From the NCBI GenBank assembly GCA_001916715.1, contig MNSZ01000064.1:89097-153096 (forward strand): a stretch of 64,000 nt of DNA, in the 5' to 3' direction. Below are positions 9,956 through 64,000 of the stretch, one piece after another (position 1 is the stretch's first letter; each line of letters starts with the position of its first letter). The notes below the pieces were generated by a model, which saw nothing but the letters and a program-made list of their open reading frames with translations, was not told the DNA's origin and searched no databases. A program made the translations under genes and the position numbers. The DNA comes from Firmicutes bacterium CAG:24053_14 (GTDB lineage: Bacteria > Bacillota > Clostridia > Oscillospirales > Oscillospiraceae).

Positions 9956-9984
9956 TTGATTAAAATTGATAAATGTAATACAAT
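9956..9984 (+). promoter_or_regulatory. Candidate sigma-A promoter firing into the inverted-repeat element upstream of nfeD
   Basis: TTGATT, a 17-nt spacer, then TACAAT. The predicted start site is about 9991, the first bases of the left repeat arm. Confidence 0.45.
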
Positions 9985-9988
9985 AAGA

Positions 9989-10269
9989 TTAAGCTGACGA
10001 GAGTCGAACGCATATCGGTTTTGACGGGCAGATTTCCGCCCATGCTGCGTTAAAGCTCTTGATAATACGACAGTATTCTCTTCAAGCTTTGCCTTGCCTG
10101 AGCAAAAATCTGCTCCGGCAAAACTGCAAAGCACCTGTCGGCTGTGCTTTTCAAGATATTTTCGGCTTTATTTGATGCAGGTGGGCTGGCGCCCATCAAG
10201 GCAAAAAAGGCGAAAATAGCCGGAAGGGTACGCCGACAGGCGATATGCGTTCGACTCTCGTCAGCTTAA
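9989..10269. repeat. Perfect 29-bp inverted repeat (9989-10017 / 10241-10269) enclosing a 223-bp segment
   Basis: TTAAGCTGACGAGAGTCGAACGCATATCG and its exact reverse complement. The right arm ends 6 nt before the nfeD RBS. Confidence 0.9.
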
Positions 10270-10289
10270 GAAAATTGGAGGTGAAAGCA

Positions 10290-10754
10290 ATGCCATCATT
10301 TGAAATGACGATGACAATGTTCTGGCTGATCGCCATGGTGTTCTTCCTCGTTGTCGAGGCGGTAACGGTGGGACTTGTGTGCATCTGGTTTGCAGCCGGC
10401 TCTCTTGTTGCGCTGCTGTGCGCCATGTTCGATGCGCCCGTTTGGCTTCAGATCGTTGTGTTTCTAATCGTGTCGGCGGTGACATTGTATTACACAAGGC
10501 CGCTGGTGAAGAAGTATGTCAACAATAAGGTCGAGCCGACAAATGCCGATATCGTTATCGGAAAGGAGTGCCGCGTGACCGAAACGATCGACAATATCGC
10601 AGGAACCGGCGCCGTTTATGTTGACGGGAAAACATGGACGGCACGCAGCGCCGACGATAGCGAGACTATCCCCGAGGGAGCGCTTGTAACGGCACGGCAG
10701 ATAGACGGAGTCAAGCTCATAGTTTCGGCTATGGAAAAAGAAACAATAAAATAA
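10290..10754 (+). CDS. NfeD family membrane protein
   Basis: Start MPSFEMTM after a GGAGGTG RBS. Three TM helices plus a C-terminal OB-fold (GKTWTARS...). It precedes an SPFH gene, as is typical. Confidence 0.8.
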   Translation: MPSFEMTMTMFWLIAMVFFLVVEAVTVGLVCIWFAAGSLVALLCAMFDAPVWLQIVVFLIVSAVTLYYTRPLVKKYVNNKVEPTNADIVIGKECRVTETIDNIAGTGAVYVDGKTWTARSADDSETIPEGALVTARQIDGVKLIVSAMEKETIK

Positions 10755-10772: not shown

Positions 10773-11678
10773 ATGCAATATGTAATTTACGTACTGATAC
10801 TTCTTGCGCTTATAATCATCGTAAGAAATATCCGCGTCGTCCAGCAGAGCAAGGTCATGATAATCGAGCGCCTTGGCAAATATCAGGCCACCTGGGGCAC
10901 CGGCATCCATGTCAAGATCCCCTTCTTTGAAAGAGTCGCAAAGACCATCTCCCTCAAGGAGCAGGTCGCGGACTTTCCGCCTCAGCCCGTTATCACCAAG
11001 GATAACGTCACCATGCAGATCGACACCGTTATCTACTTCCAGATAACCGATCCCAAGCTTTACACATACGGCATTGAGCACCCCATGGTCGCTATCGAGA
11101 ACCTGTCGGCAACCACGCTGCGTAACATAATCGGCGATCTCGAGCTTGACCAGTGCCTTACCAGCCGCGACCTTATTAACGGAAAAATGCGCACCATCCT
11201 TGACGAGGCTACCGACCCCTGGGGCATCAAGGTAAACCGCGTTGAGCTTAAAAACATCCTGCCGCCCAGAGAGATCCAGTCGGCGATGGAAAAGCAGATG
11301 AAGGCAGAGCGTGAGCGCCGTGAAGCCATTCTCCGCGCCGAAGGCGAAAAACGTGCTGCGATCCTCGAGGCCGAGGGCGAGAAGGAGTCGGCTATTCTGC
11401 GCGCGGATGCAAAGAAGCAGCAGCAGATCCTTGAAGCCGAAGGCGAAGCCGAGGCTATCCTCAAGGTTCAGACCGCTACCGCCGAAGGTATCCGCCTTAT
11501 AAACGAGTCCATGCCGAGCGAGGCCGTGCTGAAGATCAAGGCTCTCGAGGCATTTGCCGCAGCCGCCAACGGCAAGGCGACCAAGATCATCATCCCCAGC
11601 GAGATCCAGGGCATTGCAGGCCTGGCCGAGGGTGTTGTTCAGTCTGTAAAGGACGTTCCGGCAGACAAGGCAGAGTAA
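10773..11678 (+). CDS. SPFH/Band 7 (stomatin/flotillin-like) protein
   Basis: N-terminal TM helix, an SPFH domain, and a coiled-coil segment of EAEG/KRAAILEAEGEK repeats. Confidence 0.85.
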   Translation: MQYVIYVLILLALIIIVRNIRVVQQSKVMIIERLGKYQATWGTGIHVKIPFFERVAKTISLKEQVADFPPQPVITKDNVTMQIDTVIYFQITDPKLYTYGIEHPMVAIENLSATTLRNIIGDLELDQCLTSRDLINGKMRTILDEATDPWGIKVNRVELKNILPPREIQSAMEKQMKAERERREAILRAEGEKRAAILEAEGEKESAILRADAKKQQQILEAEGEAEAILKVQTATAEGIRLINESMPSEAVLKIKALEAFAAAANGKATKIIIPSEIQGIAGLAEGVVQSVKDVPADKAE

Positions 11679-11696: not shown

Positions 11697-11726
11697 GACC
11701 CGACGGGGGCTCCGCCGGGTCTTTTT
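11697..11726 (+). terminator. Intrinsic terminator after the SPFH gene
   Basis: 10-bp GC-rich stem GACCCGACGG/CCGCCGGGTC with one mismatch, followed by TTTTT. Confidence 0.75.
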
Positions 11727-11736
11727 GAGGTATATT

Positions 11737-12993
11737 ATGATCAAAGTAGCACAGTTTATGAAAAACCACGGCATGGATGCCGAGCGCATCGACCTTGCCG
11801 AATACACGAAAGCCTTTGCCGGCGCAATGCGCTCGGGGCTTGGCGCTTTTCAGAAGGAAATGCCAATGCTTCCGACGTATCTGTATTCCTCCGGCAAGCT
11901 CCAAAAGGGCGGCAGGGCCGTAGTCATAGACGCCGGAGGTACGAATTTCCGCACGGCCGTCGTGGACTTTGACGGAAAAAAGGCCGTCATCGAATCGCTC
12001 GACAAGCGCCACATGCCCGGAGCGGACGAGCCTGCGGAATGGAATGAGTTTATCTCCTGCGTTGCCGACTGCGTGCAGCCGCTGATGGGGCAGACCGCGG
12101 ATATAGGCTTCTGTTTTTCCTACCCCATCGAGATCACGCCCGAGTGCGACGGTAAGATACTAGGTTTGACAAAGCAGGTGGATATCAAAGGTGCTGCCGG
12201 CTCGTATCTCGGAGCGGCTCTGCGCACAGAGCTTGAAGCTCGCGGCGAGCACCCCGGCAGGATCGTCGTTTTGAACGACACTCCGGCTACGCTGCTCGCC
12301 GGTAAGGCGCTCGCCAAGGGCAGCTACGACGGCTATATCGGCCTCGTTGCCGGTACCGGCTGCAACACCTGCTGTGAGATCGAATGCGGCAGGATAGGCA
12401 AGCTCGATATGACCGGCGGCAGGAAAATGCTCGTTAACCTCGAAAGCGGCTCGTTTTCGGGTTTCGCGCGCGGCGACGCGGACCTCGCGATGGACGCCGA
12501 CCTGCCGGACACCGGCGAGTATGTCGCGGAAAAGATGATATCCGGCCGCTATCTCGGGCAGGTGTGCATGTACACGCTGAAAATGGCCGCTGCCGAGGGA
12601 CTTTTCTCCGAGCGCGCATCCGAGACGATCGAAAAAATGACCGAGGTCGTGACCCCGACTATCGACAAATGGGGCAGCGGACGCTTTCCGAAGGGCTTCG
12701 ACAGCGAGGATAGGGTCAATCTGGTTTACATAATCAACGAAATTTTCGAGCGCTCGGCCAGATGCATTGCAAGCATGCTCTGCGGCATACTTGAGGTCAC
12801 GGGAGCGGGCGAGGCACGCCCTGTGTGCATTGCGGTGGACGGCTCGCTGTATTCCGAGAGCAAGCTCCTGCGGCCCGAGCTTGAACGATTCATGGACGTG
12901 TACGCCGGAGAGATCATGGGCAGACGCTATGAGTTCGTGAATGCCGAAAATATGAGCCTTATCGGAACCGCCGCGGCGGTTTTGCTGAAATAA
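11737..12993 (+). CDS. Hexokinase-family sugar kinase
   Basis: IDAGGTNFR phosphate-1 motif and LNDTPATLLAG (hexokinase NDTVGTL-like). ATG at 11737 follows a GAGG RBS. Confidence 0.75.
   Translation: MIKVAQFMKNHGMDAERIDLAEYTKAFAGAMRSGLGAFQKEMPMLPTYLYSSGKLQKGGRAVVIDAGGTNFRTAVVDFDGKKAVIESLDKRHMPGADEPAEWNEFISCVADCVQPLMGQTADIGFCFSYPIEITPECDGKILGLTKQVDIKGAAGSYLGAALRTELEARGEHPGRIVVLNDTPATLLAGKALAKGSYDGYIGLVAGTGCNTCCEIECGRIGKLDMTGGRKMLVNLESGSFSGFARGDADLAMDADLPDTGEYVAEKMISGRYLGQVCMYTLKMAAAEGLFSERASETIEKMTEVVTPTIDKWGSGRFPKGFDSEDRVNLVYIINEIFERSARCIASMLCGILEVTGAGEARPVCIAVDGSLYSESKLLRPELERFMDVYAGEIMGRRYEFVNAENMSLIGTAAAVLLK
12724..12734 (-). repeat. dif XerD-arm-like word ATTATGTAAAC, site 1/10 (reverse orientation), inside the hexokinase CDS
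   Basis: The plus strand reads GTTTACATAAT and codes for LVYII. Confidence 0.9.
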
Positions 12994-15732: not shown

Positions 15733-16581
15733 ATGAAAAAGTTTATCGCACTTATGCTCGCGATGGTCATGGTGTTCGCACTGTGCGCCTGCGGCAACGA
15801 TACAGGCAATAAGGATAAAGACGGCGACCAGGCAAGCACAAAGCTGAAGATCCTTGACTCCGAATATGTCACCGAGGATTACGCTATCGGCATTGCAAAG
15901 GAAAACACCGCACTGCTTGATAAGGTCAATGCAGCTCTCAAGGAGCTCAAGGACGACGGCACTCTCAAGACTGTCACCGATTACTTCATCGCAGGCACCG
16001 GCACTCTCCCCGAGGTTCAGAAGAATGTTGCGGCCGACGCAGAGGAGCTCGTTATGGCTACCAACGCTACATTCCCTCCGTATGAGTCCGTTGACGGCGA
16101 CAAGATCGTCGGTATCGACCCCACTGTAGCAGGCCTTATTGCCGATAAGCTCGGCATGAAGCTCGTCATTAACGATATGGAGTTTGACGCAATCATTCCC
16201 GCACTCACCTCCGGCAAGGCCGACATCGCAATGGCCGGCATGACCGTTACCGAGGAGCGTCTCCAGAGCATCAACTTCTCCGACAGCTATGCTACCGGCA
16301 TTCAGGTAATGATCGTTAAGGAAGACTCCGACATCTCCAGTGCTGACGACATCGTTGCAAAGATCGAGAACGGCGAGAACATCCAGATCGGATGCCAGAT
16401 CGTAACTACCGGTTACATTTATGCTTCCGACACAATTGAGAACGGCGGCTTCGGCGAGGATCATGTTCAGGCATTCCCCAAGGGTGCTGACGCTATTGCA
16501 GCTCTCACCAGCGGCAAGATCGATTGCGTTATCATCGACAATGAGCCGGCAAAGGCATTTGTTGAAGCAAACAACGGCTGA
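15733..16581 (+). CDS. Polar amino-acid ABC transporter substrate-binding lipoprotein
   Basis: Lipobox LCACG and a family 3 solute-binding fold (ATNATFPPYE, GKADIAMAGMT). Confidence 0.85.
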   Translation: MKKFIALMLAMVMVFALCACGNDTGNKDKDGDQASTKLKILDSEYVTEDYAIGIAKENTALLDKVNAALKELKDDGTLKTVTDYFIAGTGTLPEVQKNVAADAEELVMATNATFPPYESVDGDKIVGIDPTVAGLIADKLGMKLVINDMEFDAIIPALTSGKADIAMAGMTVTEERLQSINFSDSYATGIQVMIVKEDSDISSADDIVAKIENGENIQIGCQIVTTGYIYASDTIENGGFGEDHVQAFPKGADAIAALTSGKIDCVIIDNEPAKAFVEANNG

Positions 16582-16583
16582 TA

Positions 16584-16628
16584 GCTAACCTGACAGGCGG
16601 CAGGGATTCGACTCCCGTCAGCTTAAAC
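16584..16628. repeat. Short hairpin element sharing 19/20 nt with the right arm of the 10-kb inverted repeat
   Basis: TTCGACTCCCGTCAGCTTAA (16607-16626) compared with TTCGACTCTCGTCAGCTTAA (10250-10269). Locally, CTGACAGG pairs with CCCGTCAG. Confidence 0.6.
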
Positions 16629-16637
16629 AATTTGATA

Positions 16638-16671
16638 AATGAGGCTCCGTGCGGTTATGGAGCCTCATTTT
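16638..16671 (+). terminator. Intrinsic terminator or attenuator between the SBP and permease genes
   Basis: Stem AAATGAGGCTCC/GGAGCCTCATTT followed by T. Confidence 0.75.
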
Positions 16672-16699
16672 GAGCGTTTGAGAATTAGGAGGTAGATTT

Positions 16700-18162: not shown

Positions 18163-18724
18163 ATGAATAAAACAGCACTCAAAAATGCCGCCATAGATTC
18201 AATCGAGTCTATGGCGGACTTCTACGAAAAAAACAGCAGATGAGATATGGGAGAACCCCGAGCTTTCGCTAAAGGAGTACAGGGCCGCGGCGCTTTACTG
18301 CCGCATCCTGCGCGAGCACGGCTTCAATGTGCGCGAAAAGCTCTGCGGCTCGTTTGGCAGCGGCAGACCGTATATCGGTATCCTCGGCGAATTTGACGCG
18401 CTCTCCGGCCTTTCGCAGAAGGCCGGATCGTGCGAAAAAGACCCCGTCGTTCAGGACGTGAGCTGGCTCACGCCTGCGGCGCAGATCGAAACTGCAACAT
18501 GGCCCAGCGGCATGCCCCTGCACACATGGCAAACGGTTGCCTGCGGCAAAAGCAGCATAGCGTACAAGGGCATGCTTTGTGCAGGCAAGGTGATGGCGGC
18601 TTCCGCAATAGATCTCATAGAGGATCCTGAGCTGCTGAAAGCAGCACGCGAGGAGTTTAAGCGCCGTGCAAAGGGCGGATACACCTGCCCTATAGAGCCG
18701 GAGACCGTGCCGACAGCGCTCTGA
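18163..18724 (+). pseudogene. Remnant of an M20-family amidohydrolase (AbgB/aminobenzoyl-glutamate utilisation type)
   Basis: The N-terminal piece MNKTALKNAAIDSIESMADFYEK stops at 18243. The sequence continues in another frame (DEIWENPELSLKEYRAAALYCRILREHGFNVREKLCG...GILGEFDALSGLSQKAG). It then jumps directly to the C-terminal end (VSWLTPAAQ...CPIEPETVP). The whole is under 190 aa, versus about 480 aa for intact members. Confidence 0.7.
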
Positions 18725-63945: not shown

Positions 63946-64000
63946 AACAATACTGAAGATCAATGACCTTAAGGTCAACTACGGCGGCATCGAGGCCGTC
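63938..64000 (+). CDS. livF: Branched-chain amino-acid ABC transporter ATP-binding protein; 3' end lies outside the window
   Basis: MSETILKINDLKVNYGGIEAV... Overlaps the livG stop by 8 nt. Confidence 0.75.
   Translation, partial: MSETILKINDLKVNYGGIEAV

Follow-up and report, generated by a model that had tools for sequence, protein, structure and literature searches.

A perfect inverted repeat upstream of nfeD in a human-gut Oscillospiraceae genome very probably marks the ends of a dispersed 275-bp miniature element

The window analysed here is a stretch of 64,000 nucleotides from the Oscillospiraceae genome Firmicutes bacterium CAG:24053_14 (contig MNSZ01000064.1). Between the promoter and the first gene of an operon encoding NfeD and an SPFH/Band_7 protein it carries a 29-nt inverted repeat: TTAAGCTGACGAGAGTCGAACGCATATCG at 9989-10017 recurs as its exact reverse complement at 10241-10269 (100% complementarity), with a spacer of 223 nt. 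This repeat was first described in an earlier prediction made from the sequence alone (hereafter the original prediction), and its arms, complementarity and spacing were all reproduced. With up to 3 mismatches allowed, these two are the only matches to the arm in the window; 100 shuffled sequences had none. We conclude, with a probability of about 0.85, that the two arms are terminal inverted repeats belonging to a miniature inverted-repeat transposable element (MITE), non-coding and 275 bp long, located upstream of nfeD. The identification is derived from dispersed copies, TA duplication and the occurrence of empty and filled sites. The following features of a MITE are seen: a length of less than 500 bp, no coding capacity, inverted repeats, target duplication, dispersal and strain polymorphism. 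On this reading the element is ordinary selfish DNA, as opposed to a switch dedicated to phase variation of the nfeD/SPFH operon. It belongs to a family, apparently undescribed so far, that is multi-copy in uncultured human-gut Oscillospiraceae.

The features of the site and of one further copy in the window are the following (window coordinates; + is the forward strand).

9956-9984, +: nfeD promoter, TTGATT-17-TACAAT, as originally predicted; called by the promoter scan, with the block TTGATTAAxATTGATAAATGTAATACAAT shared by relatives whether or not they carry the element.
9990-9991, no strand: left copy of the duplicated TA target, defined by the empty alleles L158 and L159.
9992-10266, +: MITE proper, 275 bp, AGCTGACGAG…CTCGTCAGCT, defined by dispersed copies and filled/empty pairs.
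9992-10017, +: left terminal inverted repeat; the 29-nt arm is this plus the flank/target T and TA at 9989-9991.
10018-10124, +: interior domain I, GUUUUGACGGGCAGAUUU … AAAUCUGCUCCGGCAAAAC, predicted to fold as a long imperfect hairpin that contains smaller ones (RNAalifold, pair counts).
10134-10240, +: interior domain II, CCUGUCGGC … GCCGACAGG, likewise predicted to fold as a long imperfect hairpin (RNAalifold, pair counts).
10241-10266, +: right terminal inverted repeat, GCGTTCGAC in the window copy against a family consensus GGGTTCRRC.
10267-10268, no strand: right copy of the duplicated TA target, defined by filled/empty alleles and the flank census.
10277-10292, +: nfeD Shine-Dalgarno sequence GGAGGTG (10277-10283) and ATG (10290).
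10290-10754 and 10773-11678: the operon, nfeD and SPFH/Band_7 respectively.
16580-16626, +: truncated right-end copy (…CCTGACAGGCGGCAGGGATTCGACTCCCGTCAGCTTAA), found with blastn and nhmmer (E = 2.4e-5) and by sequence.

The nfeD site itself has been found with and without the element. An NfeD protein identical to that of the window is very common in human-gut assemblies (810 indexed blocks; NCBI label 'Firmicutes bacterium CAG:240' / Oscillospiraceae); a 216-aa NfeD, P0002, differs by a C-terminal extension only. For the strain comparison we used contigs whose NfeD belongs to the same 90%-identity cluster and whose flanks are 95-98% identical to the window. These show three states at the exact nfeD site: empty (…AAGATTAAGAA…; L158 reads …TACAATAAGATTAAGAATTATTGGAGG and L159 …AAGGTTAGGAAAATTGGAGG), forward-filled (L160, L162 and L163) and reverse-filled (L161). 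Where the empty alleles have a single TTA(A/G)G, the filled alleles read …GAT[TA]AGCTGACG…CGTCAGCT[TA]AGAA…, which indicates that TA was duplicated by the insertion and that the element proper comprises the 275 bp from 9992 to 10266. Sister species with the gene order HSP33-methyltransferase-TrpR-like / NfeD-Band7-hexokinase and an NfeD of 83-88% identity have kept the promoter block TTGATTAAtATTGATAAATGTAATACAAT. From this block to GGAGGTG-ATG there are only about 25 nt, and the entire 281-bp unit is missing. The original prediction took flipped interiors at homologous loci as the mark of an inverton and compensatory changes as that of an RNA. At nfeD the sister species are without the element, and the strains are empty, forward or, in one instance, reverse.

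Copies are found at many other sites. At least 118 human-gut metagenome contigs carry a slightly degenerate arm core, and the 20-nt arm core is present in three contigs of the metagenome-assembled genome 'Clostridiales bacterium UBA7273' and in one contig of UMGS815. Among the matches listed, to which the counts of copies and flanks in this and the next paragraph refer, arm-bearing contigs have about 25-30 different flanks overall. There are 69 near-full-length copies including that of the window; the other 68 show 76-99.6% identity (all but four >90%), and the copies fall into 24 left-flank and 29 right-flank clusters. In many cases the contig stops within the element, and left/right flank pairings are shuffled between samples, as is expected of a 280-bp repeat, which breaks or mis-joins short-read assemblies. 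The genome of the window contains, besides the truncated copy, a second full copy about 0.7 kb past position 64000, behind a liv-type ABC operon. This was located through contigs 99% identical to the window at 54.8-64.0 kb (L090:6956-7235; also L130, L133, L144, L107 and L142) and lies directly 3' of the terminator that ends the operon for the branched-chain amino-acid ABC transporter. These additional nearby copies imply a density of about one element per 50 kb in that part of the genome. The original prediction had regarded a perfect helix as favouring a function at the level of DNA, and such a helix does indicate a DNA-level origin; it had also named MITE-type repeats as an alternative, to be recognised by further copies of the 29-mer; many such dispersed copies, with target-site duplications, have now been identified.

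Four pairs of filled and empty sites were recovered, and TA is duplicated at three of them, nfeD included. The three pairs away from nfeD bear out a duplication of 2 bp. One pair reads GGC[TA]AGCTGG when empty and GGC[TA]AGCTGACG…CAGCT[TA]AGCTGG when filled; in another, copy L097, which has TA, can be compared with the empty site in L025. Of 56 distinct flanks, 45 have TA directly beside the AGCTG of the element and 34 have T at position -3, which points to a TTAA-like target. The GC content of the flanks is 38%, compared with 52.8% for the window. Short (about 104 nt), tandem and nested forms also exist. The short form at L027:3606-3711 (also in L076, L101 and L120) lies directly upstream of a Shine-Dalgarno sequence in UMGS815-like genomes, and in some samples a full-length copy (80% identical) is inserted in tandem beside it. 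Other collections yielded one match in viral contigs, one on a plasmid/chromid (Vescimonas) and one on an unverified 'phage' contig. With so few viral and phage matches, the family is not phage-borne in general.

The element has little content of its own apart from its repeats and hairpins. The only open reading frames (ORFs) wholly within the 275 bp are of 41 aa or less, and copies differ by 1-nt indels; these indels, together with compensatory pair changes, rule out a protein-coding role. Within the element, simple scans called neither a promoter nor a terminator, whichever orientation was read. Searches of Rfam returned nothing relevant for the window copy at E <= 1, for L097, L147 and L155 at E <= 0.1, or for the whole window in gathering mode. 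A neighbour-gene census, using crude ORF calls, indicated a preference for 5' regions on both sides with no significant orientation asymmetry (downstream gene co-oriented in 25 of 32 flanks; 16 of 24 for the mirror class).

The explanation favoured by the original prediction was a switch resembling those of C. difficile cwpV and flgB: a recombinase encoded elsewhere would flip the 223-bp interior and cause phase-variable read-through into nfeD/SPFH. The layout is that of an inverton, with inverted repeats separated by about 220 bp between a promoter and a gene; C. difficile 5' untranslated region (UTR) switches with repeats of about 21 bp are documented (PMC5386303, PMC7446863), and a reversed allele does exist at the same site in L161. 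We nevertheless consider such a switch improbable, in part because of the nature of that allele. The L161 element is an exact reverse complement (281/281) of the L021/L163 allele and occupies the same TA; its 289-kb scaffold contains no Ns. The reversal is not a repeat-assembly artefact, since the arms of that allele differ at 5 positions and its longest perfect repeat is 7 bp. All five arm differences, position 8 included, have moved with the interior, and only the outer 7 bp are uninformative; as the arms were swapped whole, the joints must lie in these outer 7 bp, at the ends of the element, and not in a core inside the repeats. In addition, the L161 and L163 elements are 100% identical despite flanks of only 97.3-98.9% identity, and the downstream flank of L161 is nearest to that of the empty allele L158 (99.6%). 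The L161-type allele is an outlier, 91-94% identical to the nfeD alleles and 95% identical to copies at other sites. It is best read as a fresh insertion, or as an excision followed by re-insertion into a hot-spot TA.

The distribution of orientations leads in the same direction. At nfeD the element is forward in 26 of 27 assemblies (26:1 and 24:1 forward), and none of about 55 other flank clusters among the matches listed (14 observations or fewer each) occurs in both orientations. A flipped pattern (left flank, 29 N, reverse-complemented interior) had 0 matches in metagenome and genome collections, in a form that would miss L161, whose -10 box reads TAGAAT. Further points against an inverton are that no orientation-specific promoter or terminator was called in the element, that both strands fold equally, and that the element is missing from the sister species and from some strains, while the family occupies dozens of unrelated loci. 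As originally noted, the 64-kb window contains no recombinase: no ORF of 110 aa or more has a recombinase or transposase Pfam domain. A cwpV/flgB-like switch of the nfeD/SPFH operon is therefore not supported by these observations.

The perfection of the arms appears to have a different origin. In 67 copies the arms as a rule have mismatches at 2-3 of 28 positions (range 1-4), and 0 mismatches are found only in nfeD-site copies. The family consensus right arm is CGATATGGGTTCRRCTC…. Strain L022 has the left arm of the window but a right arm CGATATGGATTCGGCTC where that of the window is CGATATGCGTTCGACTC; the step from L022 to the window requires three changes in 7 nt, each towards perfect pairing. 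In other strains pairing of the arms is incomplete (3 mismatches and 2 G·U pairs in L021; 2 mismatches and 1 G·U pair in L022), and arm changes in L002, L009 and L021 are uncompensated. Given these changes, the perfection looks like templated conversion, and neither an RNA helix nor a recombination site appears to have been selected for. Perfect arms are a speciality of the nfeD copy and probably arose in a single templated conversion of a quasi-palindrome, in which the right arm GGATTCGGC would have become GCGTTCGAC.

We propose that a transposase encoded elsewhere would insert the element into the TA of a TTAA-like, AT-rich site and duplicate this TA. At nfeD the insertion would have taken place in a leader originally of about 25 nt, between the -10 box/transcription start and the Shine-Dalgarno sequence. 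From the spacing of the -10 box, which ends at 9984, transcription is predicted to start at about 9991-9992, which puts the start on the TA or on base 1 of the element. Because the promoter lies upstream, the operon mRNA should begin with the element. In this mRNA the arms would pair into a helix of 29 bp that encloses two long hairpins and stands 7 nt before the Shine-Dalgarno sequence. The original prediction placed the right arm correctly just ahead of this sequence; the gap is 7 nt and not 6. The leader RNA (9985-10295) has a predicted fold of -154.4 kcal/mol (z = -12.5), in which the 29-bp helix encloses several hairpins. By analogy with the Correia elements of Neisseria (see below), the helix might be a substrate for RNase III, and processing of this structured 5' leader might alter the processing or stability of the mRNA. 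The long-range leader helix suggested in the original prediction does exist as a predicted RNA structure, although as a side effect of the insertion. The terminator-like hairpin AAAGCAC..GTGCTTT, proposed at the same time, exists; it is not called by the terminator scan, and the segment pairs elsewhere in the consensus fold.

The stability of this fold might instead suggest a structured RNA leader selected by the host, riboswitch-like or a protein-binding cis-regulator, and dedicated to nfeD/SPFH. The very low z-score, the compensatory changes in the family fold and the fixation of the element in most sampled strains of the species would agree with this. The distribution of the element largely refutes it: the same sequence stands beside dozens of unrelated genes, in both orientations relative to its neighbours, and the sister species and some strains have nfeD behind the same promoter without it. 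The within-species arm changes are uncompensated, and Rfam offers no match. A dedicated leader is accordingly very improbable indeed. Two resemblances to known RNAs were also considered. A hammerhead-like CUGACGAG…CGAA in the left arm was rejected, since on inspection the sequence has no stem II; at the tRNA T-arm-like GGTTCGACTC in the right arm ARAGORN calls no tRNA. The T-arm-like stretch itself occurs at 10249-10266 and in the right arms of other copies (consensus GGGTTCGACTCTCGTCAGCT, resembling GGTTCGAnTC), and the 7 nt behind it are complementary to the first 7 nt of the element.

Several observations weigh against the MITE assignment, at least in its simplest form. One insertion is flanked by CG/TG and not by TA. 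This is at the HSP33/methyltransferase site of the sister species, GCT[CG]TATTC when empty (L148, L150-L153) and GCT[TG]AGCTG…CAGCT[CG]TATTC when filled (L147, L149). About 1.3 Mb of related contigs yielded no autonomous insertion sequence (IS) sharing these ends, and no inverted arm pair 0.7-3 kb apart occurred in any of the loci retrieved. The reverse allele of L161 could be a true, rare end-to-end inversion. Every effect on nfeD expression proposed above is deduced from sequence. The remaining points concern the interior of the element. RNAalifold applied to 36 copies gives an outer helix and two long interior hairpins with 98.3% of cells paired. Double-sided changes occur in 25 of 94 pairs. 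Shuffles gave 4.4±1.7, with none of 500 attaining the real count, and slid controls gave 1-5. The compensatory columns are 43/134, 47/129, 50/126, 51/125, 61/115, 71/106, 74/103 and 79/97 in domain I, and 158/254, 176/238 and 201/214 in domain II. There is, finally, a type-B subfamily whose interior is 72-76% identical to that of type A (the window type) and whose arms are wholly different (CCATCGGTTGACAAGGG…). It comprises three copies:

L097:3362-3635.
L155:2970-3248, on Vescimonas fastidiosa pMM35_01.
L156:2423-2748, on MT837146, the unverified 'phage' contig.

The type-B arms are about 25 nt long, complementary to each other, flanked by TA (TA|CCATCGGTTGACAAGGG…) and have the same interior boundaries as those of type A. 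The ends are AGCTGACGAGAGTCGAAC in type A and CCATCGGTTGACAAGGG in type B. Differences between type-B arms are compensated (TTAAC/GTTAA versus TTGAC/GTCAA; CGGTT/AACCG versus CGATT/AATCG), and in L156 an extra expansion of about 50 nt is confined to the terminal loop. A conserved interior with swapped arms exceeds what would be predicted for a plain MITE formed by fusion of two IS ends.

These data could also be explained if the element were not a simple IS-end derivative but a mobile structured module, with a three-way fold recognised as single-stranded DNA (ssDNA) or RNA for mobility, or beneficial to host transcripts. The arms could then vary provided that they still paired with each other, around a two-hairpin fold of about 225 nt with a 25-29-bp helix at its base. 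In favour of this are the double-sided changes and paired cells described above, the survival of the fold through total arm replacement (type A AGCTGACGAG… against type B CCATCGGTTGAC…, with TA adjoining in every case), the compensated type-B differences, the restriction of the L156 expansion to a loop, and an excess of G·U over A·C cells (139 versus 24). The force of these points is reduced by several considerations. Template switching during replication of quasi-palindromes yields 'compensatory' double changes without selection. The G·U excess comes from few inherited columns (24 versus 17 by columns), in a structure predicted under RNA rules. Both interior strands fold alike (z = -5.65 and -5.69), the census revealed no clear gene-orientation bias, and only three type-B copies are available. 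We therefore consider a structured module unlikely, if less so than a switch or a dedicated leader. Conservation of the interior may reflect a constraint on an ssDNA/RNA fold or repeated homogenisation of palindromes by template switching. Were the element such a module, its fold would be the recognition target of the mobilising enzyme or would act as a portable 5' leader, put up with or made use of by its hosts, and the empty, forward and reverse nfeD alleles would be a natural experiment on its effect.

Taken as a MITE, the element can be compared with several known systems. Correia elements of Neisseria (CREE/NEMIS) have terminal inverted repeats of about 26 bp and usually duplicate TA, occasionally other dinucleotides; they occur in long and short length classes (104-157 bp), often 5' of genes, and the transposase that mobilises them is unknown (PMC2649163, PMC10969869). 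At mtrCDE a Correia element lies between the native promoter and the genes and is part of the mRNA, where its repeat hairpin is cleaved by RNase III (PMC2649163, PMC10969869). The nfeD element is likewise a small, non-coding, dispersed repeat with inverted repeats, a TA target, length classes and a position between promoter and gene. It differs in having no sequence similarity, about twice the length (275 bp), a Gram-positive gut anaerobe as host, no outward promoter called, a pair of hairpins of about 105 nt with compensatory changes, and two unrelated arm types. By analogy, it may work like a Correia element without being a member of that group.

MITEs of the IS630/Tc1-mariner type, and other transposons with 2-bp duplications, resemble it in TA duplication, inverted repeats of 25-30 bp, preference for AT-rich intergenic regions and insertion beside the TA of another copy to give tandems. 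Judging from general IS target-duplication lengths, the nfeD element may be of this type, and its TA target would predict an IS630-like DDE enzyme. Differences are that no IS630-type transposase or partner was found in the window or the fetched loci, that one site has CG/TG, and that the two arm types share no terminal nucleotides.

The C. difficile cwpV/flgB switches, with their recombinase RecV, and gut invertons share with the nfeD element inverted repeats around 150-250 bp in a 5' UTR and an upstream promoter. These systems are single-locus switches, occur in both orientations in one population, cross over inside the repeats and have orientation-dependent effects (PMC5386303, PMC7446863). 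In contrast, the nfeD element is dispersed, has target duplications and empty sites, and shows a whole-arm flip in 1 of 27 assemblies. Other intergenic non-autonomous repeats, such as BOX/RUP/SPRITE in pneumococcus, ERIC in enterobacteria and QMITE in Coxiella, are also predicted to form very stable stem-loops in transcripts (PMC3049150, PMC10969869). The likeness is confined to these stem-loops; the sequences are unrelated, and sizes and target duplication are different.

A number of observations concern the surroundings of the element and its copies. Downstream of the insertion the gene order is nfeD, SPFH/Band_7, a hexokinase-family gene and znuA, and in the divergent direction upstream there are a TrpR-like gene, a methyltransferase gene and HSP33. 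The hexokinase-family gene (11725-12993) is of eukaryotic type (PF00349 and PF03727) and lies between the nfeD-SPFH pair and a znuA-type zinc ABC transporter; this arrangement is kept across the relatives examined. The truncated copy at 16580-16626 is located between the stop of a solute-binding-protein gene (SBP_bac_3, 15733-16581) and a terminator hairpin at 16637-16672. The TGA of this gene overlaps a GCTGA that resembles the left end of the element. In the sister species, the insertion at L147:2476-2757 is 8 nt from the HSP33 Shine-Dalgarno sequence and replaces the last codons of the methyltransferase (243 versus 245 aa). Finally, about 300 nt at 18296-18595 of the window are replaced by about 170 nt in contigs of 97-99% identity (L081, L040 and L102); the stretch, intergenic or with small ORFs, thus varies between strains.

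In gut Clostridia, a perfect inverted repeat lying between promoter and gene has the appearance of an inverton and yet can be a pair of transposon ends; the present case removes one tempting false positive of this kind. The tests that discriminate a MITE from an inverton are the presence of dispersed copies, a duplicated target and empty alleles. The family described here is common in uncultured human-gut Oscillospiraceae, where it breaks short-read assemblies and makes chimeric joins. The allelic series at the nfeD promoter (no element, forward or reverse) could be used to measure the effect of a 275-nt hairpin-rich leader on the NfeD/SPFH operon. Of all the features described, only the combination of a conserved interior and interchangeable arms may be worth pursuing further.

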